From Verrucomicrobiota bacterium (GTDB lineage Bacteria; Verrucomicrobiota; Verrucomicrobiia; Opitutales; Seribacteraceae), in contig JAQBYT010000003.1 of assembly GCA_027622665.1 (NCBI GenBank), forward strand, positions 1 to 64,000: a stretch of DNA of 64,000 nt, written 5' to 3'. The position numbers and the translations under genes were made by a program. Shown here piece after piece: positions 2,299 through 38,600 of this stretch. The number at the start of each line of letters is the position of its first letter. Within the stretch, counting starts at the first letter, position 1. The notes beneath the pieces are model-generated. The model saw nothing but the letters and a program-made list of their open reading frames with translations. It ran no database searches and had not been told where the DNA came from.

Positions 2299-2324
2299 CG
2301 GCCAGCTTACCACTTATGTCTTTC

Positions 2325-2364: not shown

Positions 2365-2429
2365 AAAAAGTCAATCGCTTGCATTTGCATATCCAGTGTA
2401 GTTGATATATTTTAAAGCTGTTCGTCAAA

Positions 2430-4469: not shown

Positions 4470-4492
4470 CGAATCCTCAACGTCATGGAACC

Positions 4493-5794: not shown

Positions 5795-5860
5795 AGAAAG
5801 CTTTTCGTAACTCGCGAAAAAAACTCGCGACAGTCAGCCACATTCGAGATGCTGAGCGGC

Positions 5861-9633: not shown

Positions 9634-9637
9634 AGAC

Positions 9638-11092: not shown

Positions 11093-11107
11093 AATACGCT
11101 AATTTCA

Positions 11108-11857: not shown

Positions 11858-13501
11858 TTATTTGTCAGTAGCGCCGCCAAGGGTGACACTGATGCCGTAC
11901 TTGGTCTGCAGATGAGCATGGGCCAGACTGGCGTATCGGCTCTTTGGGTATTTTTTGCAGGTGACTTGGAAGGATTTTATGGCATTTTCCTTCTTCCCCG
12001 CCATTTCGTAAAATTGAGCGATTCGGTGCTGGGATCGATCCGCAACGTCATCGTGAGACTTGGCCTGATTAAGAAGAACGAGCCCCTCGGTCCATTTTTT
12101 GAGGTGGCGATTGCATTCGGCCATACGGAAATAGCCTTCGGGATAATTATCGGTTTGCCGGTAGGACTGAATAGCTTGAGGCCACTGCCCCTTTTGTTCA
12201 TAGCATTCGGCGATACCCCAGTTCCAGTCGGAATGACGCTCGGGATCTACGGTAAGAAGATTTCGGTAAGTGGCAATCGCCTTGTCCCATTGATGAGATT
12301 CACGCCATGTTGAAACGATGTCCTGTTGCCAAGTCGCTTCTCGTTCCTTGTCGAGACCGACAAGCGCCAAGTAGTGTCGCACGGCCTCCTCGTACTTCTT
12401 TTCCTCGCGAAAAGAACCTGCTACGGCTCTACGGCCATTCACCTTGTCGGCATAACGACCGTAGACTGAACGGGCTTGATCCATACGCTTCTTCGACTTA
12501 TGCCAAGCGGCGATAGCTCCAAGGACTCCATCGTCCATACCGAGGATTTTACCCATTCGTTCATAGGCGGCGATGACCTCCTTATCCCTATCGAGAGTCT
12601 TGTGAATACTTGCGATTCGACCAAGGACGTCGCGCGCCTGCGCCTTTGACTTATCCCTCGAGAGATCGGCAGGGAGACGTTCTTCAAGAAATGAGATCAC
12701 TTGCCCAGCTAGCTTCTCTGCCCTTGGCTTGGTCGCATCCGTTTGGAAAAGCTGTCCGGCGGCACTGGCTCCGATCTCGTGAACGTAACGCAAGAGTTCC
12801 GCATTATCCTTCTCGAAATAAGCCTTAAGGGCTTCAACTCCCTTTGGGAATTCACCTTCTCTAAAATGGTACATGGCCAGACTACGGGAAGCCATGGAAC
12901 GATGAGGCGCTGTTTCCTGGGTCTTGGCTGTCTTAAAGGCGATCGCTGTCCAAAGTTCCACTTGCCGTTCCTCGTCCTTGCGGGTAGCGGCGATGGCGAG
13001 CAACTCAACTCGAGCAAGAGTTGCCAAATAGTGCTCGGGATAGTCAATCACCACTGATTCGAATACCTTCTCGGCCTTCTTGGGTTCACCTTGAAGTAGA
13101 TGACAATTTCCGATCATGAAGGAGGAAAGAATGGCCTCGTTGCTGTCGGGCCAGTAATCGATGACCGATTTGAAACCCTCCCGAACAGCAGTGTTTACCA
13201 AACGAAGCTTAATCTGACAGTGAGACCACATGAGCAAGGAGTAGGGTCCGCCTATACTACGTTCGTAGAGAGTGAGAAACTTTTCGTATTCAGAAGCCGC
13301 AGCCTTGTAATCGCCGGATAAATAGAATTTCTCGGCGATTTGCAGTTGGTATCGTTCAATTTCTCGCAACTTGGCAAACGCTTCCAGCGGCATTTGCTCG
13401 AGATAAGCGAGACGGGCGGCAAATAGATCCTCCCCGGCTAGAGTGGCAAGTAATAACGCCGAGGTGAGAATTAATCTGATTTTTTTCGTGAATCCAGCCA
13501 T
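11858..13501 (-). CDS. Exported tetratricopeptide-repeat protein
   Basis: Start re-placed at MAGFTKKIRLILTSALLLA (signal peptide), overlapping the upstream gene end. Many TPR-like units (EYEKFLTLY, VIDYWPDS, VVIDYPEH, GIAECYEQ, KKYPKS). Confidence 0.82.
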   Translation of the reverse strand: MAGFTKKIRLILTSALLLATLAGEDLFAARLAYLEQMPLEAFAKLREIERYQLQIAEKFYLSGDYKAAASEYEKFLTLYERSIGGPYSLLMWSHCQIKLRLVNTAVREGFKSVIDYWPDSNEAILSSFMIGNCHLLQGEPKKAEKVFESVVIDYPEHYLATLARVELLAIAATRKDEERQVELWTAIAFKTAKTQETAPHRSMASRSLAMYHFREGEFPKGVEALKAYFEKDNAELLRYVHEIGASAAGQLFQTDATKPRAEKLAGQVISFLEERLPADLSRDKSKAQARDVLGRIASIHKTLDRDKEVIAAYERMGKILGMDDGVLGAIAAWHKSKKRMDQARSVYGRYADKVNGRRAVAGSFREEKKYEEAVRHYLALVGLDKEREATWQQDIVSTWRESHQWDKAIATYRNLLTVDPERHSDWNWGIAECYEQKGQWPQAIQSYRQTDNYPEGYFRMAECNRHLKKWTEGLVLLNQAKSHDDVADRSQHRIAQFYEMAGKKENAIKSFQVTCKKYPKSRYASLAHAHLQTKYGISVTLGGATDK

Positions 13502-14952
13502 TTGTTGTACTCCGCGTGAGCATAGAAGATAATGTTTGTTCCCAATTGATAGCAAGCCTCCCAGATTGGCGTAGGCACCCCCGCATGATCGTCCGCCCAT
13601 GCGTCTCCAATGTCGCCGGGGTGATAATACGCGGCAATTCGCCCGTCCACCACCCATGCCAATGCATCCGTTCCGCCATGCGGCGCAACGTAAGGCAAAA
13701 AGGGAATGGGATACGGCACCCGGTGGATGGGATGGTCAAGAGGAACTCTAATGTAAGATATGTTCGGCAGAACTCTTCCCATCAAAGCCTTGAACTGGTT
13801 TCCCCAGTGGGCGCTGCCACCATTGTCGGCAAACAACATGCCGTGCTTTTCGGTCACGTATTGCCGAAGCACATCGGCCTCACTTTTGCCTAAACTGATG
13901 TTTTTCTGCCCCGTCAGGTAAACCACGGGAGGACTTTTCCCGACCGGAAAGTTCTTTAGCTGAGCAACCTTTCGGGTTTCAGGACGTTCGGCGATTTTAT
14001 GCTGCGTCCGCAAGTTGTATTGAATGAGCATGTTGAGATCGGCGTCAATTCCCTGGTCCCAGTCACCCCCTGAGTATTCCATCCTGATGAAGCGAACCTT
14101 CCCCCTGTTCGTTCCGCCGGAGAAACCGGCACCGGCTCCTTTTCCATAACCTACTTGGTAGGCGTGCTTGGTTATCTCCAAAAGCTGAAGCTTTATTTCC
14201 TCAAGGGGCGGCGGGTTGAATATGACCGAACTGAGGGGGTTGATAATGAACTTCTTCTTTATCACCTTCTGCACCTTGACCACCTGCTGGAGCTGCTTCT
14301 GCTCTCCTCCTCCGGCAGGCATCTCGTATAGTTCTTGGCAACCCGATGCCTGCAACAAGAGCAAAACAATCAAGATGAAAACGAAAAGATAACCAAAGAG
14401 GACGGAGAGTGACTGACGGAGCTTTTGCCTTTTGTGGCCATAGAACCATGCATCCATGTCCAACGGGTTCCAGATACGAGAACCCGTTGCCACGCCTACG
14501 ACCGACTCGTGCATGGACTGAAGCGGACCCACTCGGGCCAATGCCCCGGAAATCTCCAATCGGGCAACCTGCAGCGTACGAGACTTACGCTCCACCCAAA
14601 AAGTGGTCCAACCCAAACCCGTAACAAAGGTTATGCAGAGCCCAACCCTCGCCGCCATTGCTTTAAGGGTCATCCACCCCATTTCATAAAAGGCGAAAGT
14701 CAACAAGTGCCAAATGGGGAAGATACAGAAGCTGTAAATGGCGAAGCGAACCAGCGGACTTTCTTTCCCGGCTCGATGAAGCCACCAGCCAACGGGCAAA
14801 ACTGAAGCAGCAAACCCGACTCGCTGTATCTCGGCAGGAATTTGATACAGGGAGAGCCAATCGAACCAAAGGTAAAACCAACCTGCCGCTAAAATGGAGG
14901 TTAGAACGATCGGCTGACGAAGAGATCGTGAGACCGTTGCAGCTTCGCTCAT
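13471..14952 (-). CDS. Membrane-anchored DUF4159 domain protein
   Basis: About five N-terminal hydrophobic helices, a Q/K/P/G-rich linker, then RFIRMEYSGGDWD, PVVYLTG, GMLFADNGG, PLDHPI, PGDIGDAW, QLGTNIIFYA. Start placed at MSEAATVS. Confidence 0.8.
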   Translation of the reverse strand: MSEAATVSRSLRQPIVLTSILAAGWFYLWFDWLSLYQIPAEIQRVGFAASVLPVGWWLHRAGKESPLVRFAIYSFCIFPIWHLLTFAFYEMGWMTLKAMAARVGLCITFVTGLGWTTFWVERKSRTLQVARLEISGALARVGPLQSMHESVVGVATGSRIWNPLDMDAWFYGHKRQKLRQSLSVLFGYLFVFILIVLLLLQASGCQELYEMPAGGGEQKQLQQVVKVQKVIKKKFIINPLSSVIFNPPPLEEIKLQLLEITKHAYQVGYGKGAGAGFSGGTNRGKVRFIRMEYSGGDWDQGIDADLNMLIQYNLRTQHKIAERPETRKVAQLKNFPVGKSPPVVYLTGQKNISLGKSEADVLRQYVTEKHGMLFADNGGSAHWGNQFKALMGRVLPNISYIRVPLDHPIHRVPYPIPFLPYVAPHGGTDALAWVVDGRIAAYYHPGDIGDAWADDHAGVPTPIWEACYQLGTNIIFYAHAEYNKWLDSRKKSD

Positions 14953-14977
14953 GGAACTGTGAAAAGAATAGGCCGAA

Positions 14978-15466
14978 TCAAATGTCGTCAAGCCCGTTGA
15001 GCAGGTCCTCTCCAGAGGAATCGAGAGGGTTGGATTTGGGATCTGCAACCTTCTGCTCGCCGATACCCAATGCATCGGCTGTAGATTGCTCGGGAGTCCT
15101 CAGTGGCTTCTCGCCTGCTTCGCCTGCCTCCGGTTCGTACTCGGATTCCTTTTCTTGCTCGGTTGACGAGGCACCTGCAGAAGGCGTCTCATCACGGGCG
15201 AGCTTTTCAGCTTCCTGATTTTGCTTCAGGTAAAAAGGCACGGCAGAAAGAATGAAAAGAAGAACCGCCATAAACACAGTCGCCGAGACCAAGCTTTTTC
15301 CAAGATGACTCTCGGCCACGGCTCCCATCATTTCTTTTGGGCTCTTTCCTTTGAGGTTTGCGAGAAACTCACGGAGTTCGCCGACCACCGCTTGTCCGTT
15401 CTCCCCAAGACGCTCAATATCTCTTTTGGGGCTCATGACAGGTTTTACAATTGGTTCTTCACTCAT
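14978..15466 (-). CDS. Hypothetical single-pass membrane protein with acidic low-complexity C-terminal tail
   Basis: One hydrophobic helix (LVSATVFMAVLLFILSAVPFYL) followed by an E/P/A-rich tail; co-oriented within the cluster. Confidence 0.7.
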   Translation of the reverse strand: MSEEPIVKPVMSPKRDIERLGENGQAVVGELREFLANLKGKSPKEMMGAVAESHLGKSLVSATVFMAVLLFILSAVPFYLKQNQEAEKLARDETPSAGASSTEQEKESEYEPEAGEAGEKPLRTPEQSTADALGIGEQKVADPKSNPLDSSGEDLLNGLDDI

Positions 15467-15498
15467 GGTTACGTTGATTTCCTGAAAAAGTTTCTCGG

Positions 15499-15903
15499 CT
15501 ATTTTCTCTGTTTTTCGAGTACATGATGAATTTCGCCCCCGGCTTTGCTTACAGCCTCGATGACGGGCTCGAAGTGGATGGCGGTTGCATCCTTATGCAC
15601 CTTAAGCAATACGGTGCGTTTATTCTGTTCCGCGTTTCCAAGAAGATCAGTGAGAGCTTTCGCCAATTGCCCTTGGGCGATCGGACGACCATTCAAATAA
15701 CTTTTGTTATCTACGTCGATGACGACACTGGCTTTATAGTTCTTCGCCTGCTCCAACTTTTCTTCAGCTGCGGGTTCCCAGCGAAGATGGCTATCATCCT
15801 GAGCACGGGCTAGAATAACGAAGAAGATAAGCAAAAGGAAGGCGATGTCGCCCATAGCCATGGAGGGAACCGATGCCTCGAAACTGCGTTTGGGAATTTT
15901 CAT
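15499..15903 (-). CDS. ExbD/TolR family protein
   Basis: MGDIAFLLLIFFVI transmembrane helix with the conserved Asp; periplasmic domain VLLKVHKD...VIEAVSKAGG. Confidence 0.88.
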   Translation of the reverse strand: MKIPKRSFEASVPSMAMGDIAFLLLIFFVILARAQDDSHLRWEPAAEEKLEQAKNYKASVVIDVDNKSYLNGRPIAQGQLAKALTDLLGNAEQNKRTVLLKVHKDATAIHFEPVIEAVSKAGGEIHHVLEKQRK

Positions 15904-15907
15904 CGTT

Positions 15908-16330
15908 TCAGTTTACGATATGTGCTTGCTCCTCTTCGATTTGGAGCGTGACGATTCCACCGGCTTTCTCGATAAGTCCCGTGACGTTTATCCAACGTTC
16001 GTACGAAACGTCCTTGCGGGATTTCAGGACGACTACCTTATCCTCTTTCCTTTCCTTTCGAGCGAGCACGCTCGCCAAGCGAGGGGCAAAGGTCTTATTG
16101 GGGACGGGATCACCATTCAGTATGACGGCGGTTCGAGTTAGTTCCACTTCGGGGTTCTGGCTTTGGTTCTTTTTATCGGGCTCTTCTTCGCTCTTGGGAA
16201 TTTCCTGAGGTCGGCCTTGCTCGGGTTGAACAGATGCGCAAACAAGAAAAAAGATAATTAGGATGAAAGCTATGTCGCTGGAAGCGCCTGCAGGGGGTTC
16301 CACCAAAAGTTTGTTCCGCCGGAGCTTCAT
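15908..16330 (-). CDS. ExbD/TolR family protein
   Basis: SSDIAFILIIFFLV transmembrane helix with the conserved Asp; VVVLKSRKDVSYERWINVTGLIEKAGG. Confidence 0.88.
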   Translation of the reverse strand: MKLRRNKLLVEPPAGASSDIAFILIIFFLVCASVQPEQGRPQEIPKSEEEPDKKNQSQNPEVELTRTAVILNGDPVPNKTFAPRLASVLARKERKEDKVVVLKSRKDVSYERWINVTGLIEKAGGIVTLQIEEEQAHIVN

Positions 16331-17220
16331 TCCTCGCTTACCTTCGCGGCAGTCTTGCGACGGGTGGAACGGCGTTTGGTTTTCTTCGATTCATCTTCAT
16401 GACGATCAAGAGTTAGACGAACGGTAACCACTTCTATGAGCTCCGCTGAAGTGCCCTCGACCTCAAGAACGAAACCGTTAATAATACTGGTGAAGTAATT
16501 GAAGAATATATATGCGGGGATGCCCACGATGAGACCGAAGCATGTGGTGAGCAACGCAACCTGAATACCTGAAGCCGCGGCTTCGACAATGTTCACCTCG
16601 CCCATTTTCTCAACGATGTCGGAAAACGCCACGATCATACCTTGCACTGTCCCGAGGAAACCGAGCATGGGAGCAACGCTGGAAATGGTAGCCAGAATGG
16701 GCAGATGTCTCTCAAGGGCCGCGACAACATGAACGCCATAATTTTCCATGCTCTTAACGACCTGTTCTTCAATCTGGGCTTGATCATGTCCTAGTTTTTT
16801 CAGGACGAGATACTTTCGGAGACCATTGGAAAGCATAGCGGCCACCGGGCCACGTTCGCTTTCGCATAGGTAAAGGGCGTCCTCCGGCTTGTCGTCCGAG
16901 AGAAGGTCGATTACTTCTTGCCGAAGCTTTTCGCCGTCAGAGTCCAACATCTTGAGGCTACGCCAACGTTCGATCACAACCGCCATGCCAACGATCGCCA
17001 GAATGAGCAACGGCCACATAAAGAAACCACCTTCCAGGAGCAAGCCGATGGCGCCCTCCTGCATCACGAGCTCCAACCAAGTGGGCTCCGCAACTACCTC
17101 TGCGACTTGCTCGGCAACGTCGGCGCCATTGGTCACCGCGACAGAGGAGTTGGCATCCGTCGCGTTCGCATCGGTAGCGTTTGTCTCGGCGGCTTGTGCG
17201 AGAAAAATAGGGAAAGTCAT
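16327..17220 (-). CDS. MotA/TolQ/ExbB proton channel family protein
   Basis: GGFFMWPL; VIER; LATISSVAPMLGFLGTVQGMI; GIQVALLTTCFGLIVGIP. Confidence 0.93.
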   Translation of the reverse strand: MTFPIFLAQAAETNATDANATDANSSVAVTNGADVAEQVAEVVAEPTWLELVMQEGAIGLLLEGGFFMWPLLILAIVGMAVVIERWRSLKMLDSDGEKLRQEVIDLLSDDKPEDALYLCESERGPVAAMLSNGLRKYLVLKKLGHDQAQIEEQVVKSMENYGVHVVAALERHLPILATISSVAPMLGFLGTVQGMIVAFSDIVEKMGEVNIVEAAASGIQVALLTTCFGLIVGIPAYIFFNYFTSIINGFVLEVEGTSAELIEVVTVRLTLDRHEDESKKTKRRSTRRKTAAKVSEE

Positions 17221-17242
17221 AATATGGGCTTCTAGCAATTAA

Positions 17243-20200
17243 CTACTCGTCGAGATTGGCTTCCTTCTCGAACTGGCTAAGCATCTCGGGCAAGGCCAAT
17301 CTGCCTCGCGAGTACTTGGCGGCATCGCTTTCGGGGAAGTCCCAGCGGCATCGATTATAACGCTGGAAAGCGAGCGGTACGTTTTTGCCCATCCGATAGC
17401 TTTCACCGCCCCAAAACAGAGCTTCGGAACAGAGCTTTTCATCGGGGAAACGCTTGACGAAATCATCGAAGGCAGTAGCTGCATCCACATAGCCCTCTCT
17501 CTTGTAGTGACACTGACCTACGCGGAATGCCATCTTGGGAGACCATTGATGCGACTCAAAACGATCAATGAACTTGATCCCCACTTGAGCGGCGATGTCG
17601 AACACCTCGCGCTTGTAGAAGTACTCGGAAATGCGAATCATGGCGTTGGCGATCAGGGGACTCTTCGGATAAGTTGAAGCAAGGGTAACGTAAGCCTCCA
17701 AGGCGTCATCAAAACGTTCGGCCTCCTCATAAGCTTGGGCCAACTTGTATTGGGCATCAGCGGCAAGGGGGTGTTCGGGGAAATTCCTGACAATCGTTTC
17801 GTACGCCTCAATGGCACCTCCCCACTCCTTCAGTTCCTGAGCAAATTGTCCGAGGAGATAGTTCATCCGAGGAGCGTACTTCGGGTCCGGGTAATCCTCT
17901 ACGAGCTGCTTGAGGGCGAGACGACCGTGCCCTAAGTTGCGAGAAGCCTCTTCTTCACGACCCAACTTGCGGTGACTCTTGAAGAGCTCGAAATAACTTT
18001 CCGCAACGTGAAACTGGGTACGCACGGCAAGCTCTTCATCAGCGAAAACCTTGCTGAAAGAAGATATGATGCCATCGGCTCCAATGGAGACGGCGGACTC
18101 GGAAGTAACGACGAGGGAACCTTCTTCCGTATTGGCTACAGGATCATGGTAGGACGCGGAAAGAAGATCACCGAAGAAGGTTTCGAGAGAGACATTTTCA
18201 TCGAGGTTGCCAATAGTTGGCTTTTCCACTGCGGTAAGGCGAAAGGATCCGGTAAAAACCCCGCTGTGGCTTAGCGTTTCCTCCAATGTAACGGTTTCCA
18301 TCTCGCCAAGTTTAGTCTCAATCTTAACCTCGGCTAGATCTCGCTCATTGGAGACGTCACGATCAGGGTCGATGACGCGTAGGTATAGCTTTTCTCCTAC
18401 ATACAAGAGTTCCGCGGAGTCCTCGTACTCGGAATCGGTAATGGCGAGAGAACCATCCGCAACCATCTTGCCTTTTGAACTAAGGATTGTTCCATTTGTC
18501 TCATCCGGACGTTCGACGTCCTTATAGCCAACCGTGACTAGATCCGCTCCGGAAAGGTTTACGACTCGCATCGTAAGATCAGGTCCATCAGACTCTACTT
18601 CTTCCTCGGGAGAAACCAGGCCCCCGGAAAGATTCCTGGGAGCATCAACCCCCGCAGGGATAACTTCGGGACTGCCCGAACCGCCAAGACGGAGCAAGGC
18701 CTGCCCCACGAATCGACCTTCGTATAGCGGCCAGTTGGTGAAACCAAGAGGTGCGGTAGTCGCTTTCCCAAAGGATGTCGAGAGTTCGCACTCAAGAATG
18801 GCCTCGCGAGATGAATTCCCCTCGCCGACCAGTACCTTCACTCGTATGGTGGACAGGCTATCTTTTGCTGCATCGGGATCGATAACTTCGACAGCAAGGG
18901 GCATCTCGTACGCAAAACCGACCACTTCATCGGACTCCTCGCGCCTTGGGAGGTAAGTGGCCTTGGGCTGTCCGAGAGTAGAACGAACATAGCGGGTCTC
19001 CACGATCCGGACTGCTCCGTCGGTAGGTTGACGAACGAAAACAAGCCCTTCTCTAGCAAAGGAATGACCGGGAAAGGTGTTTTGCGGATCAACGTAACGG
19101 AGGTTAACACGGTCTCCGACTGATACGGCGAGTTTGCCTTCCTCTTCCTCTACGGAAGTATCGACCTCCGTCCGAAAGACGCCCGTATTTTCACCGGTTT
19201 CAATGGCTTCGAGGCGCATGGGCGCATCGGAATTACGGAAGACCTCGATACTCAACTTGTCGACCTCGGCCGTGACATCCATATCGTAATCGGTAACCTC
19301 GATGACGATTCGTTCGCCCGGGTCGATACGCATCAAATCCTTCTCCGTCTGGTTGACTTGTCCGTTTCCTGACCGGACAAACTCGTAGCTGATGGGACGG
19401 ATTTTGGCATTGTAATAGGTAGCCGTAAGAGTCTTGGTGAGCAGTCGATTCTTCAACCCTCCTCGGGCAAATTCGTCAACGTAACTTGCGGTAACAACAT
19501 CGCCAGCAGTAATTTCGAGCACGTCGTTTTCGGCCATGGCCAAAACATCCGCCTCCGTAGGTACCAAAAGCTTGTCCCCGGCTTTGACTTCGACTTGATT
19601 GATCGCCAACGACTGGCCAACGTACTCATCAAAGATCAGCTCAACATGCCGGAGGTGAGAAGGTGGAATCGAGAAGTTCCAGTTGGAACCCTTTTTCGCA
19701 AGCTTTACCTTTTGCTCTTCCTTTTTAGAATCCTCGGCAAGATCGATTCCGGATAAGTCAAAGTCCGCAGGACGGAAAGCGCCAATGGCGACCTGCTCGA
19801 CGTTGGGGTTTTCACGGGCACGAGTGACAAGTGTGCCTAGTTGCGGATTGTGAACATAGGCGACAACGGTCAACTCGTGAGCGCCGGCCTCGAGAAAAAC
19901 ATCAACAGATCGAGCTTTTCGGATTACTTTTTCATCACCGGGAAGGACTAGCTTCCCATTGACCATTATAGCCGCATTGTCTGCCAGAACGTTGAACCTA
20001 GTGGCACCCGCTTTGAGTTGCGCATACAAACCCGACCAGACAACCACGCGAGCCTTCTTCGCCTCTTTCCCGCCTTCTTCTGCAACTTCCGTGGAAAGCA
20101 TCCAATCGAGCTCGGACACCTCCATGGTTTCCTCCGGTTCACGACCGTCAAGACGAGTAGCAAAGGCGTCCCAAGAATGTAAGTTGACATTCCCCGGAGA

Positions 20201-23200: not shown

Positions 23201-24769
23201 CTTCTTTGACAGAGATAAAAAAGCGTTCGGCTTGTTGGCAGCTATAGCCTTTTCGAATGCCGTCCATTCGGCCACGTCTCGGTTATTCCCGAGGTTCTTG
23301 AGTCGTTGCTTAAACCACTTCCGATTACCCTTTTCCAAATCAGTGCTTCCCGTCCCCTTGGCCCAGCCCTGCAACCAGGAACGAAAGTGAGAGAGGTGAC
23401 CATTCGCCTCGGCATACTTTATCAGTTCCTCGGCGTCGCGACGAAAAGCTCCTTCATCGGGAGCGCCGGAAAGGAACCAATTCATAGCGGAACTCACCTT
23501 TCCATCGTTAGGAGATTCTTCACGAAGCATTTGACGAACTTCGTTGCGGGCTCGGTTCGCGTCCTTCATGCGATCTCGGTAGACTTCGAAGGCCAAGGCA
23601 TAACGGATGAAGTGACGTTGCCCGGGTTCGACCTTGCCGAAAGACTCCCGCAAGATGCGTTCCGCCTCGGGCAGACGGTTTTCGCCTAGTTCGTACATCC
23701 ACCGAACGTAGTAGCTCGCGATGTCACGGGCACCGGGTTCATGAACGATGGCCTGTGCAGCAGTTGAAACAGCGGGAGAAAGTTGTTTGTCGCGAGCGTA
23801 GGCGTGGGCAAGATTTGAAAGCACTTGTCCGAGGTAGGAGCGGTTTTTTGGATAACGACGCTTGTAGTCCTCCACCAAAGGCTTGAGTTCACCGGCTTTG
23901 GAACTGCTTTCGTATAGGACTGATATCAACTGACGAAGATAACCCTCGTTGTCGCGTTGTTGTTCCCAAGCCTTGCGGTAATGCGCCACCGCATTAACCC
24001 GCTGTCCGGCACCCCAAAGGTGTCCGGCAATTGTGTAGTGTAGGTAACCTCGCCGATTGGGGTCTGGAATCAAGTTCCGTTGGATAAGCTTCTCTCCTAT
24101 AGCGATAGCACCCTTCCGGTCCCAATTACCGTTACTGCAACGGTAGAAGGCATACATCCCCAATTCTATTGCAGGAGTACCGTTAAGATGATTCAGCATT
24201 TCTAGAGCTAGACGTCCACATTCCTTGGCTCCCCCGACACTGGACTCACCGAAAAGACGCACGGCCCGGAACCCGCTTTCAAGGTCTTTTTCACCCGAGA
24301 ATCGCCAAGCTTGCTCAAAGCCCTTTGCCGCTTCCATTTTCTTATTTTGACGCTCTAAAACCTCTCCAAGGTCACGAGCCACTTGCTTGGCTGATCCATC
24401 CTGTTTATAGAACTCGATAAATTGACGAGCGGTTGAAACGATATCCTCATTTCGCGAGAGGATCAGATGACCATCCAGCAACTTCAGCATAATCTCCTTG
24501 TGACGAGGATGATCACGATGGGTTTTTACGAAAATCTTCCCGGCTCGAATCAAGCCAAACCCTCGAGCATTTTCGTGGTAGAGGTCGATCAGTTCGAGAA
24601 GGACATTGGCTCCTTCCACGGTAGACGCATCTAACTTGCGGACTTGAGCTTCGAGATCGGCGGCACGTGTCGAAGCTTTGTCGAGACCTTCGTCTTGGGC
24701 GAAGATCGGACCGACAATAGCGGAGGCAAGAGCCATGAGACCGGATGAGCGTAAGATGTTTAGATTCAT
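17243..24769 (-). CDS. Giant (2508 aa) exported protein: TPR arrays, Ig-like repeats, discoidin (F5/8C)-like and PA14-like domains
   Basis: Signal peptide ending IFA-QDE; about 1100 aa of helical/TPR sequence; a central beta-rich region with repeated VxDxD and ETxxxSGxF motifs; C-terminal TPRs of the xxxFPxxxxAxxA type. Confidence 0.85.
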   Translation of the reverse strand: MNLNILRSSGLMALASAIVGPIFAQDEGLDKASTRAADLEAQVRKLDASTVEGANVLLELIDLYHENARGFGLIRAGKIFVKTHRDHPRHKEIMLKLLDGHLILSRNEDIVSTARQFIEFYKQDGSAKQVARDLGEVLERQNKKMEAAKGFEQAWRFSGEKDLESGFRAVRLFGESSVGGAKECGRLALEMLNHLNGTPAIELGMYAFYRCSNGNWDRKGAIAIGEKLIQRNLIPDPNRRGYLHYTIAGHLWGAGQRVNAVAHYRKAWEQQRDNEGYLRQLISVLYESSSKAGELKPLVEDYKRRYPKNRSYLGQVLSNLAHAYARDKQLSPAVSTAAQAIVHEPGARDIASYYVRWMYELGENRLPEAERILRESFGKVEPGQRHFIRYALAFEVYRDRMKDANRARNEVRQMLREESPNDGKVSSAMNWFLSGAPDEGAFRRDAEELIKYAEANGHLSHFRSWLQGWAKGTGSTDLEKGNRKWFKQRLKNLGNNRDVAEWTAFEKAIAANKPNAFLSLSKKLNTEQKFVRFHGELGFDYRHYVGDKDRPLAIPHYKELARRFAKDASRASAWLEASNYGNVGDRLEALRHFLQADLVNESNRWHEAYRAAHEAKDDNLLRQVHQYVAKAEGQFGKNLGYLSSNVSLLLDRNMTNEANEYVNRYAGVDSDNAEFRNAVHLRLRDADENAKAREFDKWRKADNDQHGAFASDYAEILFAKKDWNNFTRVLNEARSRQNQRPFRGFTFDAGKTNSWISSVRLDKEISEADKIRVLQSLRDLDIYNYSIFAKLALLQMDSQKPKTEIERLKALRSTLLRADTSFHGWNTALGFAQAALTAGDHVGGATLLTAAQSYAGNVPASYKENGRGLLAQAYSRIGGIGMTIDKDSPLAPLMEILLQLRLGDRERALEAYLSQRQLFDKHRSELPLELILFAAESHVAAGGDENHGRVEDLLAVWLVKNGESVNFSDPEKASVRLLLARNYFKWLRYDAARSEFTTVKNSYPDGEDAMEAVFGIGETFMAQKNYVKAEEIFDDLANSRDRKVVIRAEFMRGLLASRQGDRDKARNIFRSVLERVPDVKLANETLYNLAEVYGLEQRYMDQLQLLRAVGRLGQSSKRWHEPGVALSIVVQDSDLGISRGHTTIPVHIRTEPGGDVEKVGLVSGGAGKGLFMAEIPTALGIASKGDRVLQLKGNDVVTVDYPEEFKKEFRFHMLGTNEIHIAADADFDAASSLVIEDGDAEESFTDELVADDKKDDDELELSSEGRPTNQIKPGNFIYMRVKDADRDLTDGADKSLVKLEATSGDSVTVELQETAPSSGIFLGRAKTGELPAGALASDVSIGSNPLMSIDKDVDSAWISEPDGATPKWLIVDLKDVYDVTDVTIRSPNQPVPTSTWTYRDVKGQDHALSLDDDGSYETKVGDAVKKGKWSYEGAEDRFTLTPVEGNATAMIFNSDTGRFEVESNGNPHLRDGRLERGNQAPVRMRLRGSHDGRFWYELARFPSEPVAKDMGLGKGKMTRRVYVSPGNVNLHSWDAFATRLDGREPEETMEVSELDWMLSTEVAEEGGKEAKKARVVVWSGLYAQLKAGATRFNVLADNAAIMVNGKLVLPGDEKVIRKARSVDVFLEAGAHELTVVAYVHNPQLGTLVTRARENPNVEQVAIGAFRPADFDLSGIDLAEDSKKEEQKVKLAKKGSNWNFSIPPSHLRHVELIFDEYVGQSLAINQVEVKAGDKLLVPTEADVLAMAENDVLEITAGDVVTASYVDEFARGGLKNRLLTKTLTATYYNAKIRPISYEFVRSGNGQVNQTEKDLMRIDPGERIVIEVTDYDMDVTAEVDKLSIEVFRNSDAPMRLEAIETGENTGVFRTEVDTSVEEEEGKLAVSVGDRVNLRYVDPQNTFPGHSFAREGLVFVRQPTDGAVRIVETRYVRSTLGQPKATYLPRREESDEVVGFAYEMPLAVEVIDPDAAKDSLSTIRVKVLVGEGNSSREAILECELSTSFGKATTAPLGFTNWPLYEGRFVGQALLRLGGSGSPEVIPAGVDAPRNLSGGLVSPEEEVESDGPDLTMRVVNLSGADLVTVGYKDVERPDETNGTILSSKGKMVADGSLAITDSEYEDSAELLYVGEKLYLRVIDPDRDVSNERDLAEVKIETKLGEMETVTLEETLSHSGVFTGSFRLTAVEKPTIGNLDENVSLETFFGDLLSASYHDPVANTEEGSLVVTSESAVSIGADGIISSFSKVFADEELAVRTQFHVAESYFELFKSHRKLGREEEASRNLGHGRLALKQLVEDYPDPKYAPRMNYLLGQFAQELKEWGGAIEAYETIVRNFPEHPLAADAQYKLAQAYEEAERFDDALEAYVTLASTYPKSPLIANAMIRISEYFYKREVFDIAAQVGIKFIDRFESHQWSPKMAFRVGQCHYKREGYVDAATAFDDFVKRFPDEKLCSEALFWGGESYRMGKNVPLAFQRYNRCRWDFPESDAAKYSRGRLALPEMLSQFEKEANLDE

Positions 24770-24831
24770 TGAAAGAGAAGAGAGGAGAGGAGATTAAGGA
24801 GAGGAAGTTGAATCTGCAGATAGCGAGAGAA

Positions 24832-27276
24832 TCAATAGCCGGCCTTCGCCAAGGCATCGCTAATTCGTTTGGCCTCGATGGCAAGATTGCTGTCGGGGAA
24901 TTCTTCGATAATCTGATCGAACTGACGACGGGCATCCCCCTTGCGATTTACGCGGTAAAGGCAACGACCGTAGTTAAACAGAATGACGTCGAGAAAACCT
25001 GCATCGGGATGATCACCAAGAACGTTTTCAAATACGTCGATGGCCCTCTTGTAGTCCTTTTTGCGGTAGTAGTAATTAGCCATCTTGGCTACGGCGTCTC
25101 CCACTCTCCCGCTTTCGGGGTAATTCTCGAAGACGACTTGGTAGGCGCGAAAAGCTTGCTCGAAATAGCCTTCACCTTTGATTGGTCCGGCATCTACCGC
25201 CATTTGCTCGTAGCACTCGGCAATACCGAACTGACCTTCACCACGCAGTTCGCTTTCCTTAAGGGTGGTCAGCCCCTTGAACAGGGCAATGGCTGTTTTC
25301 AAGTCACCCCGTTTCTGAGCCACCTTGGCCTGCTGAAGAATAGCATCGTCGACAAAGGGACTTTCCGGGAACTCGTGCTGGAGGCGGCGACTCATGGCAG
25401 TTGCGGCGCCATAATTCTCCATGGCGAAGTATATCTTCCAGAGACCGACGTAGGATTCCTCCAAAATACGTCCACCCAGCTTACGAGCGGATTTTGCGGT
25501 GTCTTCGCCGATTGAAAGAGACTCTTGATACTTGGTCTTGGCCTTTTCGGCGAGACCGAATTCCTTGTAGTGGTTACCAATCTCGGCAAGAGCGGCAGCC
25601 GTCTTGAGCTCGGTGCTCAACCGGAGTTCCTCATCATCGATTCGAGTTTTGGTAACACGAACGCCGCCGACGTTCCCCTCGATGCACTTTGCGGAAGCAC
25701 TGACCTCTCTCGGATCCTTGGTGACGTTGAGTTTGTCACTGTATTTAATTCTTACGAAATCACCGGGCATGGCTTGCAACTTATCATCTTTTTTCGCCTC
25801 AGCTTGGTTTTCTATCGCAACAACTCCTCGAAAGACGCCGGAATGAATGGTATCGTCCACAAGCAATTCGGGAGAAATCGATACGGTTTCGGGTTCGTCT
25901 TCTTCTAAAGCAGGAACGCTTTCCTTTTTACCGGGTTTTTCTTCATCGGAAACAGCTGATTCGGGAGTATCGCCAACTGTGGGATTCTTGAGAGAAGTTT
26001 CCTTGGAATCGCTTCCTACCTCAGGTTCATCTGTCGCAAACGGAACAGTCTCAGGTTCGGCGAAAGCGACCTCTTCCAGCTTCACCACTACTGTATCAAC
26101 GGTCTTGAATTTGTCGATTTTGGGTCCATCCTCACTGTCGAGAGATAATAGTGAGAGAGGATCCTTGCCTTCCTCGGGGGCCGCGATTGCACCGCTGGCT
26201 ACTAGAGTTGCAATTTCCTCGTCCAGTTCTTCGGGAGACTTCCTGCGACGAACCTCGAGTACCGCGGATAGGGTATCGGCATTATCCGAAAGATCTCCAT
26301 CGGGATCGTCAACCTGAAGATTCACTATTTTCCCAAGAACAACTCCACGCAAAGTATCTCGATAGGAACCATCCATAATCGAGGCCTTCCCCTGCCCCAC
26401 CACTTGCACTTGCTTAAGTCGTTTTTTCCCGAACTCCCGGGAGGCAGTGTGCTTGTCGACGTAAGTAACGTCCACTACGTCTCCTCCGCCGACTTCAAGT
26501 ATGCCATTGCCTTTTGCCACCTTCCCGAGGCGAGTAGGCAGGGAACCGAGAACGATGCGAGAGTTACGGCCGACTGCACGACATTGAACCTTTTCCTCGT
26601 CACCACGTTTAGTCGAGCAAATGATTTCCACAACATCTTCTTGGGCCAGTATGGCGAGATCCGCATCCTCGATTTTCACGAATAGTCGTTTCCCAGCTTC
26701 CACCTTCTCCATCCCTTTTTCTTTCTCGGAGAAGGCAGTACCGACCTTCTCGAGAGACTCGATCGCTCGGCTGTAATGACCCTGCTTGAAATGACCGAGA
26801 CCAATATAGTAATAGGCTCGATTCACTTCCTCCGAAGCAGGGAACTCTTCGATGACCTTACGTAAAATCTTAAAACACTTTCCGTAAATTCTGGCCTCAT
26901 AGAAGCAGACACCCTGTTTCAAGGTTCCTTTTGCTCGCATCGAATCATCCGTATTGCTCTCTTCGGAGACCGCCTCGAAATGCTTGCGAGCCTCGTCGTA
27001 GGCACCTTTGGCGGTCAGGAGATGTTCACCGATCCGCATGTGTGCGTCATATCGAACTTTACTGCGGGGGAATTGATCCAGAACCGTTTGCCAAATCTCA
27101 AGAGCCTTTTGCTTTTCGTCTGCTTCCATACGGGCATCTCCGGCCTCGAGCAATTTACGAGCCTTGCGGTCTTCGGTAATCGAACCCCGCATGGGAGCGG
27201 CTTGCCCCATGGTAAAAGTCGGTACCGCGAGAACGGTCATTAGTAAGGATAGAATGGGTAGGCGCAAGAGGCTCAT
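24832..27276 (-). CDS. Exported TPR - Ig-like repeat - TPR protein
   Basis: Signal peptide MSLLRLPILSLLMTVLAVP; N- and C-terminal TPRs (DQFPRS, EEFPAS, ENYPES, EEFPDS); central KIEDAD / VDDPDGD / HSGVFRG module and an acidic linker. Confidence 0.85.
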   Translation of the reverse strand: MSLLRLPILSLLMTVLAVPTFTMGQAAPMRGSITEDRKARKLLEAGDARMEADEKQKALEIWQTVLDQFPRSKVRYDAHMRIGEHLLTAKGAYDEARKHFEAVSEESNTDDSMRAKGTLKQGVCFYEARIYGKCFKILRKVIEEFPASEEVNRAYYYIGLGHFKQGHYSRAIESLEKVGTAFSEKEKGMEKVEAGKRLFVKIEDADLAILAQEDVVEIICSTKRGDEEKVQCRAVGRNSRIVLGSLPTRLGKVAKGNGILEVGGGDVVDVTYVDKHTASREFGKKRLKQVQVVGQGKASIMDGSYRDTLRGVVLGKIVNLQVDDPDGDLSDNADTLSAVLEVRRRKSPEELDEEIATLVASGAIAAPEEGKDPLSLLSLDSEDGPKIDKFKTVDTVVVKLEEVAFAEPETVPFATDEPEVGSDSKETSLKNPTVGDTPESAVSDEEKPGKKESVPALEEDEPETVSISPELLVDDTIHSGVFRGVVAIENQAEAKKDDKLQAMPGDFVRIKYSDKLNVTKDPREVSASAKCIEGNVGGVRVTKTRIDDEELRLSTELKTAAALAEIGNHYKEFGLAEKAKTKYQESLSIGEDTAKSARKLGGRILEESYVGLWKIYFAMENYGAATAMSRRLQHEFPESPFVDDAILQQAKVAQKRGDLKTAIALFKGLTTLKESELRGEGQFGIAECYEQMAVDAGPIKGEGYFEQAFRAYQVVFENYPESGRVGDAVAKMANYYYRKKDYKRAIDVFENVLGDHPDAGFLDVILFNYGRCLYRVNRKGDARRQFDQIIEEFPDSNLAIEAKRISDALAKAGY

Positions 27277-27429
27277 GACTGTTAAGTGAAGGGCTGTAAG
27301 TGAAATGAACGGTTCGATTCTAAAAAAATGCGACTGATTGGGAGGAATACAGTTAATTAGCATACAAATACGCTAATGGAAGCAATACACGAAAGGAATT
27401 GCCAACAATTGCAAAGAGAAAAAGACCTT

Positions 27430-28692
27430 TTAAGCAAAAAGTTCTTTAACGGGTTCGCCGCCTTCGCGAATAAGACGCATAGGACGCTCGAGTGGCGTCA
27501 TAATCTCCTTCGAACCATCAATCCCCAAGGAATGGCAAACGCTGGCGTGTATGTCGTGTGGTTTGACCGGACGTTCATCAGGCATAACACCATCCTTGTC
27601 CGATGAACCGATCACTTGACCACCTTTCACGCCACCTCCGGCAATAAAGCAACTGAACACCTTGGCATGGTGGTCGCGTCCGGCGTTGTCGTTGATTCGA
27701 GGCGTTCTACCGAACTCACTTAGCATCAGAACGAGCGTTTTTTCGAGAAGTCCGGTGGCGGCAAGATCCTCAATAAGCGAAGCCAAGGCCGGATCCATGA
27801 TTTCTCCGTGAGCACGCATAGCATCAAAATTATTGCTGTGCGTATCGAAGCCTCCTCTGTTCACCTGAATAAACCTAACTCCTGTCTCAACTAAACGCTT
27901 GGCCATGAGAGCTCCACGACCGAAATCCGTATCCCCATATCGAGCGATTGTCTTGGGATCTTCGTGCTTGATCTCGAAAGCCTTGAGGGCGGGACTGTGC
28001 ATAAGCGCGACTGCGTCGTCAACGGCAGCCTCATTGGCTCTCATGTCGTTGGCTCCGTATTTGTTCGAAGTACGCTTGTTCATCTTGGCAAGAACATCAA
28101 GCCGTTTGTTCCCTCGGATTTCGCTAATGCCGGCGGGAAACTTCAGATAGGGGTCGGGTTCCCCGGGTTGACCGACAAAATAGGCGGCACACTTCTGTCC
28201 GAGATAACCAGAACGAGGGGCCTGTCCGCTGACGGACACAAAGGCAGGAAGGTCGCCCAAACGCTCTTTCTCATGAACCACGATACTGCCCAGGCCCGGA
28301 TGCACCAGATTGGCACTCTGCCCGTAACCCGTCTGCAGTTCATAAGTGGCTCGACCGTGATCCCCATTAGTCCCGGCTATCGAACGAACTAGCGCGCAAT
28401 GATGCATTTGATTCGCCAATTGTGGAAAAATCTCGCTTATCTGAACGCCATCGGCAGAGGTCTTAATAGCCTCGAACTCGCCCTGAGTGGGCCGACCCGG
28501 CTTAGGATCCCAAGTGTCAATGTGGCTCATTCCCCCACCGTTCCAAAAAAGGATAACATGCTCAGCCTTGGCAGGCATGGCTGTACCTTTGGCCGCAAGC
28601 AGATGACCGATCGGCATTCCCAACAATGTGGCGGCTCCGGCCGCTCCCTGAATAAATCGACGTCGTGTAACAGCGTAATCGTGACAGTGCAT
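27430..28692 (-). CDS. DUF1501 domain protein (Tat-exported)
   Basis: TRRRFI; GGMSHIDTWDPKP; AKRLVETGVRFIQV; GFDTH; SEFGRTPRIN; GRDHH. Confidence 0.93.
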   Translation of the reverse strand: MHCHDYAVTRRRFIQGAAGAATLLGMPIGHLLAAKGTAMPAKAEHVILFWNGGGMSHIDTWDPKPGRPTQGEFEAIKTSADGVQISEIFPQLANQMHHCALVRSIAGTNGDHGRATYELQTGYGQSANLVHPGLGSIVVHEKERLGDLPAFVSVSGQAPRSGYLGQKCAAYFVGQPGEPDPYLKFPAGISEIRGNKRLDVLAKMNKRTSNKYGANDMRANEAAVDDAVALMHSPALKAFEIKHEDPKTIARYGDTDFGRGALMAKRLVETGVRFIQVNRGGFDTHSNNFDAMRAHGEIMDPALASLIEDLAATGLLEKTLVLMLSEFGRTPRINDNAGRDHHAKVFSCFIAGGGVKGGQVIGSSDKDGVMPDERPVKPHDIHASVCHSLGIDGSKEIMTPLERPMRLIREGGEPVKELFA

Positions 28693-28738
28693 AGTAGTTT
28701 ACTTGGTTCTATGAGTTTTCGTGAATAGGGGAAAATAA

Positions 28739-30880
28739 TTAGGGAAGAAACTTGAACTCGTGGCTATTGAGCATAATCCAACGCAGGTCGGCCATGCCCT
28801 CGAGAGGTGACTTCGACTCGGTAAGGAGGACCAGACCTTCCTCAACTTCTTCTTTGGTTGGTTCACGTGTGAAAGTCTCCAGATAAGCCAACTTGACGGC
28901 AGCCACATTGTCTTGATCCTTGCCGGTCAAGAGTTTGTGAATGGGTTCGAATGGTCCGACTCGGGAAGCTTCGTGGGTAAGTTTCCCGTTGAGCATCATC
29001 AATGCCTGCCTCATGGAGGCGGAAAAATCGCGAAAATCTCCTAGGCGATCCCGACCGGGTTGACCAAAGATGCGCAAGAAATGATCGGCTGGCGCCGGAG
29101 AAGCCATCAGGTAAGAACTCGAATACAAGGGATTGTCGTCCACTTTGTCCTCCATGTAGACGTATTTGTATTTGCCGCGGCGTGTAGGCGTCTTCGCCAT
29201 TTGAGCCATCCTCATCGCCTCCAAATCGCGTTCCGACTGCAACCGCATCGACTCCAGTTCCGCTTTCACTTCGTTACGGGCAAGAAGGGATTTGAAGTCC
29301 AAGGCGATGCTTTTCTCCAGATCGTATCCACCTCGCGGGGCAGCCATCGCAGCCATCGCTGGATTGCCGGAAGTAGAATCACTCGGAGTAGCTTCGGATA
29401 TTTTTTCTTTACCATTCTCGTCGAGGTAGACCCGCTCACGCCGCTTCACTGTCTTGATATTCGCTCCTTCAGGCCATTTATGCTTATCGAGATGACCAGC
29501 GATTATCATGCTGTCGAAGAGGGCCTCGCCTATCATCCGGCGGGAAGCTCCGGCGACAAAAGCCAGCTCGGAATCCAAACGCACCTTATTGGACAAAGAG
29601 GAATCCAAACGCCCTCGAGCGTATGCATCGGAATGCACGACCAGACGCACCATATCACGGAGATCGAACCCGACAGCCACAAATTCCTTTCGAAGAAAAT
29701 CCAATGTCTTCGGATGCGAGATGTCTTGGTATTTGGAGAAATCATCAATAGGTTCGTAAATACCACGCCCCATGAGCTCCGCCCAAAGACGGTTCACGAA
29801 GTTTTGGGCAAAATAACGGTTACGAGGATGGGTAACCAGTTTTGCCAGCTCGGTCCTCATCTCGCTGGCCTTGTAAAGGTCTCCCTTGATATCGAGACCG
29901 GCGTTCTGCCGTTTCAGCTCAGCATCAGGATCGAATCCAGCCGGACCATTCTTGCGAGAAGCGACGGCAACCGTTGCGACTGTCCCATCAAGCAAACTTT
30001 CGAGCGAGGCCACTGCACCAGGTATAGCCGCATCCTTACGCTGTTTGGCGCGTTTGGCCTCCAATCGAGAAACATGTTCGGGCTTCTTGTCAAACTGTTC
30101 CAGCAGGAAGGGGAATTTCGCTTCGATTGGATCACGAGACGGCGGCTTTTCCCGTTCAGGCGGCCAGAGCACTCGGTTTTCATCGGTCTCAGTGGTGTAT
30201 ACGGATCGCGTAAGTCTGCTTTCAATACGGCGAGTTTTCCCAAAGAAGCTGGCCATTTCATAAAACTGGCGCTGTTCCCAATCGTCGAATGGATGATCGT
30301 GACACTGTGCGCATTGCATACGAACCCCCAAGAAGACTTGAGCGGTAGCAGCAGTCAAGGCCATGGGGTCCACGTCATCGTTAAGAATAAAACCCACGGT
30401 GGGCGTACTGTTAGCACGTCCATTAGCCGAGATTAGTTCGCGAGCCAATTCATCGAAGGGCTTGTCCTCCTCTACCGCTTGATGAACATAGGCGAGCAAC
30501 GCAGTTCCGCTGGTCGCACCCGTACGGATTCGGAGCATATCCGCATAGAAAGCAGTCCACCGATCCGCAAAACGACCGTTCTTCATCAGCTCCTCAACTA
30601 TACGTTCGCGGCGCTCGGCAACCGGCCATTTCAAGTAACGGTTGATTTCCTTGTCGCTAGCGATACGCCCTATCAAATCCACGCTGATTTTTCGAAGGAA
30701 AGCCAAATCATTCAATACCGGTCCAGCAACCACACCTTGCTTGCCGGCGTTATCCTCGGCTAGAACCTCGTCCACCTTCGAAGCCCCGAAGATCGAGGTA
30801 GTAGCCAAAGCAGTCAGCGTTAAAAAGTTAGAGAAGAGATAAAATCTCCTTCCCCCTCCCATTGACAAAGTAAATTTCAT
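28739..30880 (-). CDS. DUF1549/DUF1553 (PSD2/PSD1) domain protein
   Basis: DLAFLRKISVDLIGRI; QCAQCHDHPFD; FVNRLWAELMGRG; QALMMLNG; DLRWIMLNSHEF. Start uncertain (30880 or 30862). Confidence 0.9.
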   Translation of the reverse strand: MKFTLSMGGGRRFYLFSNFLTLTALATTSIFGASKVDEVLAEDNAGKQGVVAGPVLNDLAFLRKISVDLIGRIASDKEINRYLKWPVAERRERIVEELMKNGRFADRWTAFYADMLRIRTGATSGTALLAYVHQAVEEDKPFDELARELISANGRANSTPTVGFILNDDVDPMALTAATAQVFLGVRMQCAQCHDHPFDDWEQRQFYEMASFFGKTRRIESRLTRSVYTTETDENRVLWPPEREKPPSRDPIEAKFPFLLEQFDKKPEHVSRLEAKRAKQRKDAAIPGAVASLESLLDGTVATVAVASRKNGPAGFDPDAELKRQNAGLDIKGDLYKASEMRTELAKLVTHPRNRYFAQNFVNRLWAELMGRGIYEPIDDFSKYQDISHPKTLDFLRKEFVAVGFDLRDMVRLVVHSDAYARGRLDSSLSNKVRLDSELAFVAGASRRMIGEALFDSMIIAGHLDKHKWPEGANIKTVKRRERVYLDENGKEKISEATPSDSTSGNPAMAAMAAPRGGYDLEKSIALDFKSLLARNEVKAELESMRLQSERDLEAMRMAQMAKTPTRRGKYKYVYMEDKVDDNPLYSSSYLMASPAPADHFLRIFGQPGRDRLGDFRDFSASMRQALMMLNGKLTHEASRVGPFEPIHKLLTGKDQDNVAAVKLAYLETFTREPTKEEVEEGLVLLTESKSPLEGMADLRWIMLNSHEFKFLP

Positions 30881-33502: not shown

Positions 33503-33590
33503 AGTCGTCCGGCAATAGATTTCCGTTTGCCATTCATCGAACGATAAGACGTTAAGAAACATTTGCCCGAAATCTCCGAAGAGAAAACAT

Positions 33591-37000: not shown

Positions 37001-37074
37001 TCCCAACATCCAAACATTGCTCGCAAGCATCGCTTTCGCTGGTCAACCTGCAAGCTTTCCTTCAAAAAGATCAT

Positions 37075-38574: not shown

Positions 38575-38600
38575 ATTCTTTCACCATCAAGCCAACACTC

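Follow-up and report, generated by a model that had tools for sequence, protein, structure and literature searches.

A conserved proton-motor operon of Verrucomicrobiota and Planctomycetota with a proposed DUF4159 force transducer

In this study, a ten-gene operon was analyzed in a 64,000-nucleotide stretch of DNA from a Verrucomicrobiota bacterium (assembly GCA_027622665.1, contig JAQBYT010000003.1), referred to as the window. The operon lies on the minus strand and runs from position 30880 to 11858. It is a variant of the Ton/Tol/Agl kind of motor and transducer. A motor of one ExbB-like and two ExbD-like subunits probably drives an arm formed by a DUF4159 protein, and good confidence is placed in this architecture. 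The fuller proposal, in which the same architecture handles glycans in the periplasm, is tentative. The window corresponds to contig C47 in a 4.5 Mb genome, 93.5% complete. The nearest relatives of its ExbB (91–93% identity) carry the labels Opitutales or Puniceicoccaceae.

Scanning GTDB genomes for ExbB yielded 71 loci, of which 40 had 51–93% identity and 31 had 42% or less. The 40 closer loci, which come from Verrucomicrobiota and Planctomycetota, were defined as subtype A, the subtype of the window. In subtype A, the gene of a giant scaffold protein stood before ExbB in all 38 loci reaching so far, and both ExbD genes followed ExbB in 38 of 38. The next genes were those of a small single-pass protein (35/36), the DUF4159 protein (32/32), and a last TPR protein (27/29, with both exceptions keeping a copy elsewhere in the genome). 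The neighborhood check proposed in the original prediction therefore found the gene order conserved in 40 loci of two phyla. The distant loci were defined as subtypes B/C; 14 were fetched, 13 had the motor, and 12 of these had the same scaffolds in other orders. No subtype A locus was found among 300 sampled Verrucomicrobiota or, the center genome excepted, among 300 sampled planctomycetes. Distant versions (30–42% identity) occurred in 15/300 and 13/300 genomes, about 5% of either sample. In the window's family (36 genomes), 9 genomes had both marker genes, 24 had neither, and 3, which were 69–84% complete or less, had one only. The distribution within the family was patchy and dispensable, with 11 of 36 members as carriers, and these were the larger genomes. 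A protein search with the DUF4159 protein gave 849 relatives at E 1e-30 or better. The operon is real, conserved, and scattered in marine and freshwater Planctomycetes and Verrucomicrobia.

The proposed force transducer is the DUF4159 protein (493 residues, 13471..14952, minus strand). It had been described as simply membrane-anchored; instead, its N-terminus is polytopic and is followed by a TonB-type helix ending in Gly-Cys, a motor box, a short linker, and the DUF4159 head. The Gly-Cys was invariant (30/30) and could be a lipidation site. A conserved segment, K-K-F/Y-x-x-N-P-x-S, was found 20 residues past the helix. Its K, K, N, P, and S were invariant in 31 of 31 subtype A proteins and mostly kept in 16 B/C rows. 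The segment belongs to a motor-box-like stretch at residues 266–289 of a 534-residue frame (14209..14280).

Periplasmic portions of the DUF4159 protein and of both ExbD subunits were folded together in a three-chain job, in line with an earlier suggestion to predict the motor with a membrane partner. The predicted complex scored 0.61, and the best of three controls scored 0.01. Of 157 solved complexes, 116 reached the mark, as did 2 of 215 mismatched pairs; these counts are only roughly valid for a three-chain job with the alignments used. At least 85% of the contacts agreed between runs, and the pLDDT (predicted local distance difference test score) of the partner was at least 80. The predicted interface was confined to the 24-residue box, which lay against the last ExbD1 strand and a helix of ExbD2. 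Replacing ExbD1, the only subunit swapped, abolished the score. The box of the DUF4159 protein is predicted to be bound by the ExbD1/ExbD2 pair. The predicted interface matches the "motor box" of TonB and TolA described in the available text of PMC12204202.

The motor subunits are encoded on the minus strand at 16327..17220 (ExbB), 15908..16330 (ExbD1), and 15499..15903 (ExbD2). In the ExbB/ExbD family, protons passing via the ExbD Asp turn the ExbB ring. The MotA_ExbB and ExbD domains were above the Pfam cut-off and the transmembrane Asp and Thr ring were present, which places the subunits in the motor family. The transmembrane Asp (Asp19 in both subunits) occurred in 39/39 ExbD1 and 38/38 ExbD2 sequences, and the residues at E. 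coli positions P141, T148, and T181 were kept in 41/41 ExbB sequences, so that both residue claims made earlier from the single cluster hold across the subtype. In a quick tree with weak deeper branches and without authenticated AglR, subtype A ExbB formed one clade with a Shimodaira–Hasegawa-like approximate likelihood ratio test (SH-aLRT) support of 100. The clade was apart from B/C, E. coli ExbB and TolQ, the seven other ExbB of the genome, and the Myxococcota and Bdellovibrionota rows. Tree and synteny agree with a motor clade that is conserved, set apart from the others, and provided with partners of its own.

The residues of the membrane helices differed between the subtypes. In distant versions, the helix His was present in 10/14 DUF4159 proteins and in 12/13 small proteins (as S/T-x3-H in 7), and the helix-1 Ser (Ser34-equivalent) and helix-3 Glu (Glu176-equivalent) of ExbB were each present in 12/13. 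In subtype A, the His was present in 0/30 DUF4159 proteins and 0/36 small proteins, and the Ser and the Glu were each present in 0/41. Among B/C loci, only L118 (G016:C4) was without both His, and its ExbB was also without the helix-1 Ser; this was a second joint loss, probably an independent one. The two joint losses of His and Ser fit the co-loss of a docking pair, being two events without a statistic. The losses of His, Ser, and Glu across subtype A could also be read as a motor that is uncoupled or that works through a different contact; the operon would then be a static scaffold, with motor residues kept for assembly alone. In the alignments, both ExbD Asp, the ExbB Thr ring, the box, and the ExbD contact residues were invariant in subtype A, at 51–93% identity across two phyla, and this reading is very improbable.

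The small protein (162 residues, 14978..15466, minus strand) consists of a conserved cytoplasmic amphipathic helix, a membrane helix, a low-complexity linker, and a conserved acidic tail. Its comparison with distant counterparts gave an hhalign probability of 69% (E 4.6e-5). From its position and distant homology, it is probably a headless anchor like TonB or TolA.

The cluster had been called TonB-less. No PF03544 (TonB C-terminal) match was found in the ten proteins, and no TonB_C, TolA, TolB, Pal, or barrel family matched them in Pfam or NCBIfam, so the term holds for domain content. In the functional sense it is not supported, since arms of the TonB/TolA type would be formed by the DUF4159 protein and, probably, by the small protein. 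Against 8 ExbB and 10 ExbD matches in the genome stands a single TonB_C match, which lies in a separate TonB operon on C32. Neither TonB_C nor a TonB-dependent receptor barrel was found in 10 of 36 carriers, all incomplete assemblies, which argues against a motor that relies on a Ton system elsewhere in the genome. Service to a TonB encoded elsewhere was rejected on these two grounds, in keeping with the original prediction. A TonB-dependent receptor lies at 33591–35729 (+), 2.7 kb beyond the cluster. A receptor was near the operon in 4/5 same-family relatives, plus one more, on either side. This receptor was rejected as the target, because there was none on the ExbB contig in 33/33 other carriers and it was present in 3/5 relatives without the operon. 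Other motor genes without TonB were observed in the genome. An orphan motor operon (L122:9287-18333, G000:C3) encodes a 1044-residue TPR protein, ExbB, ExbD, and a 1543-residue membrane protein with PD40 propeller repeats, and adjoins flagellar genes. Two TPR-ExbB-ExbD clusters without TonB (L123:9278-16386, G000:C61; L124:7258-11697, G000:C55) were also present, one with two ExbD.

The head of the DUF4159 protein was covered by DUF4159 at E 2.9e-29, with no VWA match in Pfam. The head model was superposed on the DUF4159-like structure 4i66 with Z 23.9 and a root-mean-square deviation (rmsd) of 1.8 over 186 aligned residues. The values for the glutamine amidotransferases 2abw and 1kxj were Z 10.2 and 10.1, with an rmsd of about 3 over 147–156 residues. 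The modeled fold is class I glutamine-amidotransferase-like. A His in an H-P/Q-G-D motif was invariant (47/47). The Cys-His-Glu triad was absent: the strand-helix elbow, located via modeled secondary structure and not superposed coordinates, reads D/S-N in 31/31 subtype A proteins. With the His invariant but the elbow Cys missing, the head more likely serves for binding than as a glutaminase. In one distant locus (L119), an FHA domain was fused to the DUF4159 protein. The genome's other DUF4159 protein is homologous to the head (hhalign 98.4%) and lies inside a MoxR/BatA-vWA operon. That operon (L128:4984-12394, G000:C7) contains TPR-peptidase MA, DUF4159, MoxR AAA+, probable DUF58, and BatA-vWA genes, the usual setting of DUF4159.

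The first two genes of the operon encode a PSCyt2/PSD1 protein (713 residues, one CxxCH, exported; 28739..30880, minus strand) and a DUF1501 protein (420 residues, twin-arginine signal; 27430..28692, minus strand). Eleven PSD orthologues beside the operon scored 618–1070 bits, compared with 210 bits for the best same-genome paralogue. A single-copy DUF1501 orthologue (62–98% identity) was found in 31 of the 37 carrier genomes covered, 3 short loci of the 40 in subtype A being left out. Seventeen of the 31 were on the ExbB contig and strand, 13 were on other contigs where the ExbB contig ended too early, and 1 preceded a gene like that of the 843-residue TPR scaffold on another contig. PSD orthologues flanked the DUF1501 orthologue in 11/11 cases inspected. 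Orthology, co-location, and marker co-occurrence argue that the pair belongs to the operon, and by these sequence comparisons it is a dedicated part of it in subtype A. The view of the two genes as strays was rejected for subtype A by the orthologue scores, the co-location, and the co-occurrence in the family. The motor as a universal servant of all PSD/DUF1501 pairs was also rejected, because 24 relatives have such genes without the motor. The operon links one orthologous pair to an energy source and so opens a first genetic approach to this much expanded family of Planctomycetes-Verrucomicrobia-Chlamydiae (PVC) bacteria. Further PSD/DUF1501 pairs flank the cluster, within 883–11815 (+) and 31175–40073 of the window. 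In three large planctomycete genomes, a 620-residue exported GATase1_like and helical-repeat protein replaces PSD/DUF1501 upstream of the operon (L091:1337-3208, L092:1193-3079, L093:5308-7182).

The kinship of the head and the dedicated pair allow another explanation. The operon may encode a proton-powered remodeler of periplasmic proteins, in which the motor replaces the MoxR AAA+ ATPase and matures or reactivates clients, the PSD/DUF1501 proteins first. Dozens of copies of PSD/DUF1501 modules are present in PVC bacteria. It would act through a TonB-like arm with a head derived from a MoxR operon, the clients being held in a cradle of TPR and S-layer-type Ig domains. The periplasm is without ATP. 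The vWA domain is the other typical partner of MoxR, and the genome's other DUF4159 protein stands in a MoxR operon. The published transducers have vWA heads (PMC12204202, available text). The short linker, the lack of an outer-membrane gene, and the GATase1_like protein at the place of PSD/DUF1501 in 3 loci also favor a remodeler, as does the number of PSCyt2 matches, which was 37–51 in the 9 family genomes with both markers and 1–34 in the 24 with neither, a copy number confounded with genome size and kinship. However, all 24 operon-less genomes keep PSCyt2 genes, and 6 of 37 carriers have no DUF1501 orthologue; the 3 GATase1_like loci are among the 6. Around distant versions, 14 stretches, each some 20 kb long, showed neither a PSD nor a DUF1501 gene, although their upstream ends were not always reached. 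A remodeler is considered unlikely. The known jobs of ExbB/ExbD-type motors are receptor import, outer-membrane tethering, and gliding. If the remodeler were true, a motor of the Ton/Tol family would act on neither the outer membrane nor the surface and would dock without the SHLS motif.

The scaffolds are three TPR proteins with Sec-type N-termini and about 3,900 residues together. No lipobox and no peptidoglycan-binding domain was found in them by sequence and Pfam. The first, of 814 residues (24832..27276, minus strand; 843 residues if started at 27363), has the order TPR, two Ig, TPR. The middle of the 843-residue protein (25564..26751) was modeled as two Ig domains with a pLDDT of 59.7. 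The best matches of this tandem were archaeal S-layer proteins; it matched the Nitrosopumilus maritimus protein 8c8k with a Foldseek E of 2.1e-8, and its superposition gave VIA Z 15.4 and an rmsd of 8.4 over 212 aligned residues, the next match having Z 9.4. In this model of modest confidence, the S-layer type of N. maritimus is the closest match to the Ig domains. The second scaffold is the giant (2508 residues, 17243..24769, minus strand), which is partly paralogous to the 843-residue protein. It has a helical/TPR N-terminal half, four Ig modules by hidden Markov model (HMM), a fifth by motif only, and a CpoB-like C-terminal TPR region. A discoidin domain and a PA14-like insert lie inside Ig2. 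The discoidin domain, named in the original prediction, was found in 16/16 giant segments. The PA14 domain named with it was weak, with matches in 3/16 orthologue segments at E 0.001–0.04 and none in the window's protein. An extra CBM6/35-like or DUF5077 module was found in 4/16 segments. The Ig-module HMM matched the giant four times and all 13 B/C giants fetched, and matched no other protein of the window's genome. A PDB sequence search with the giant gave TPR matches only, and an ESM Atlas search with its middle part gave two matches under 0.9 and no new family. The third scaffold is an exported all-TPR protein of 547 residues (11858..13501, minus strand).

The scaffolds bear on two further explanations. 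In one, the motor pulls a lattice of S-layer-type Ig domains as a Tol-like envelope tether or remodeler, shaping an enlarged periplasm or coupling layers. The CpoB/YbgF-like TPR ends, the S-layer-like Ig domains, and a weak match to the S-layer model of anammox Kustd1514 (E 2.6e-7) are consistent with it. Unlike a core envelope system, however, the operon occurs in about 5% of sampled genomes (15/300 and 13/300) and is missing from 24/36 family members. Pal-like genes lie elsewhere in the genome, on C64 (two tandem lipoproteins, G000:C64:46667-47917), and the scaffolds lack a lipobox and a peptidoglycan-binding domain; a tether is quite unlikely. In the other explanation, the motor energizes the secretion or surface assembly of large proteins via an unlinked outer-membrane translocon, like the type IX motor. 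The long TPR scaffolds were weakly similar, below cut-offs, to the PorW/SprE and BamD models, and S-layer-type domains would suit such a role. These matches are generic to TPR and no translocon or cargo gene co-occurs, which makes a secretion motor distinctly improbable.

The preferred reading is an accessory, proton-driven machine of the periplasm. By analogy, ExbB would be a pentamer, and together with a heterodimer of ExbD1 and ExbD2 it would make up a Ton/Tol-type motor, a stoichiometry that is inferred. The last membrane helix of the DUF4159 protein would lie beside the motor, and the ExbD pair would grip the box, as with TonB. The head would pull on or through the TPR/Ig scaffold, as in the Agl-Glt model, where the GltG head binds the TPR protein GltD (PMC11761067, available text). 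The box-to-head distance of DUF4159 proteins was 47–65 residues, so the head would work near the inner membrane and the scaffolds would supply reach across the periplasm. The small protein would be a second, headless arm. The job may be to capture a large glycan or glycoconjugate and to move it, in an energized way, inside the periplasm; discoidin and CBM-like modules would hold the substrate, and the dedicated PSD/DUF1501 pair would act on it. The patchy, dispensable distribution in larger genomes speaks for an accessory role. The best guess of a glycan is suggested by the discoidin domain in every giant segment, the CBM6/35-like or DUF5077 modules in some, and the sulfatases and NanE nearby.

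Several points weigh against this reading. The complex score may presumably pass through likeness to solved structures of ExbD with TonB peptides; the ExbD entries 8p9r and 8vgc were only remotely similar (E about 0.5). The helix His, the ExbB Ser, and the ExbB Glu are missing throughout subtype A, so membrane coupling may differ from that of Ton and Tol. The contact between head and scaffold is inferred only. Sugar binding does not follow from the presence of discoidin or Ig domains. Neither an outer-membrane channel nor a hydrolase was found in the operon or its conserved neighbors. Sulfatases are very abundant in carrier genomes, and their closeness to the operon is therefore weak evidence.

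The ten co-oriented, closely packed genes were confirmed by the open reading frame list, Pfam, and gap measurement. With likely starts, the intergenic gaps were 46, 153, 62, 22, −4, 4, 32, 25, and −31 nt; the 153-nt gap after DUF1501 shrinks to 66 nt if the longest frame is taken. The Pfam order was PSD1+PSCyt2, DUF1501, TPR, TPR+F5/8 type C, MotA_ExbB, ExbD, ExbD, no family, DUF4159, and TPR. NCBIfam gave only sub-threshold TolQ/ExbB/TolR matches and YbgF-like TPR. A promoter and terminator scan was uninformative, with 3 promoter-like signals against 12.9 expected and 26 terminator-like signals against 23.7 expected. RNA-library contigs of four seawater studies covered 29, 29, 29, and 26 of 30 bins and bridged five gene junctions, which is weak evidence because DNA carry-over is possible and there was no silent control. 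The neighbors shared between loci were sulfatases, seen in 6 loci, and NanE, seen in 4 close relatives. In the window, NanE, a SASA-sulfatase fusion, an MFS transporter, and sulfatases surround the cluster at 883–11815 (+) and 31175–40073. A rearranged operon was observed in Gemmataceae (L056 and L099, G336:C418), where PSD/DUF1501 lie behind ExbD2, the block of small protein, DUF4159, and TPR genes is upstream, and a dockerin-bearing 1279-residue gene lies between. One distant version (L107, G197:C1) carries a tandem of two giant scaffold genes, and a DUF6288-HEAT gene lies downstream. PA14, DUF6288, and FG-GAP proteins come after distant versions.

The operon was compared with known systems. 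Ton is alike in motor family and in a motor-box segment predicted to bind an ExbD dimer, but the operon has no TonB C-terminal domain or linked receptor. Tol-Pal is alike in motor family and in CpoB/YbgF-like TPR segments, but the operon is without the TolA C-domain, TolB, and Pal, has a heterologous TolR-like pair, and is patchy in distribution. Agl-Glt is alike in its heterologous motor of one plus two subunits, two single-pass arms, and periplasmic TPR scaffolds (PMC11761067, available text). The Agl-Glt analogy drawn earlier stood for the motor and TPR partners and not for the rest. The model NF033760 of GltG, a transducer with FHA domain, helix, and TonB-like C-domain, had no match in the 93.5% complete genome, no Glt model matched the ten proteins, no GltC/D/E homologue was found, and the operon lacks the TonB-like C-domains of GltG/GltJ and the GltA/B/H barrels. 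A gliding or surface-motility motor, which the shared layout and the FHA fusion of L119 would favor, is also disfavored by the flagellar genes of the genome and by the presence of the Agl-Glt core itself in non-gliding bacteria (PMC3169522, available text). This role is extremely unlikely.

The search of the literature gave no description of the operon. DUF4159 was found in a single Pfam database paper in the full text searched, most subscription papers being outside it, and no paper in searchable full text joined DUF1501 with motor or TPR terms. The transposon supplements PMC10632474 and PMC12283558 gave 0 term matches, their tables being by locus tag only or covered in part. A TPR-centered periplasmic complex of Verrucomicrobia, Akkermansia MUL1, is reportedly needed for mucin import, and is noted as a lead only. 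The gene mul1A is termed a mucin transport gene in the available text of PMC12570417. The DUF1501-PSCyt/PSD1 modules of PVC bacteria were described by Kamneva et al. (2012; PMC3542564, available text), and the first two genes of the operon are such a pair. As for a link to a proton motor, ExbD, TonB, and TPR occur 0 times in the main text of that paper.

The closest known loci are the TPR-tolQ-tolR-tolR-transducer loci of PVC bacteria, with vWA heads and SHLS helices, predicted computationally by Williams-Jones et al. (2025; PMC12204202, available text). They share with the operon a gene for a TPR protein, one tolQ-like gene, two different tolR-like genes, and two single-helix transducers downstream, which combine a motor box with a non-TonB head. 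The operon differs in that its head is DUF4159 and not vWA and one arm is headless. The SHLS histidine is lost in subtype A and kept in most distant versions, and the linker has 47–65 residues, compared with about 100 in PMC12204202. The operon adds three scaffolds with S-layer-type Ig domains and the dedicated PSD/DUF1501 pair. DUF4159 had 0 matches in the supplement of PMC12204202 as searched. The machine had been called undescribed, which stands for its function, uncharacterized so far; since its general layout has been published as a computational prediction, the operon is not wholly undescribed. The predicted contact between box and ExbD pair, the apparent joint loss of His and Ser, the scaffolds with modeled S-layer-type Ig domains, and the PSD/DUF1501 pair, dedicated by its orthology, are added here. 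With motor and motor box kept, the head swapped, the helix motif presumably needed for docking dropped, and no outer-membrane target, the operon tests the essentials of TonB-type force transduction.

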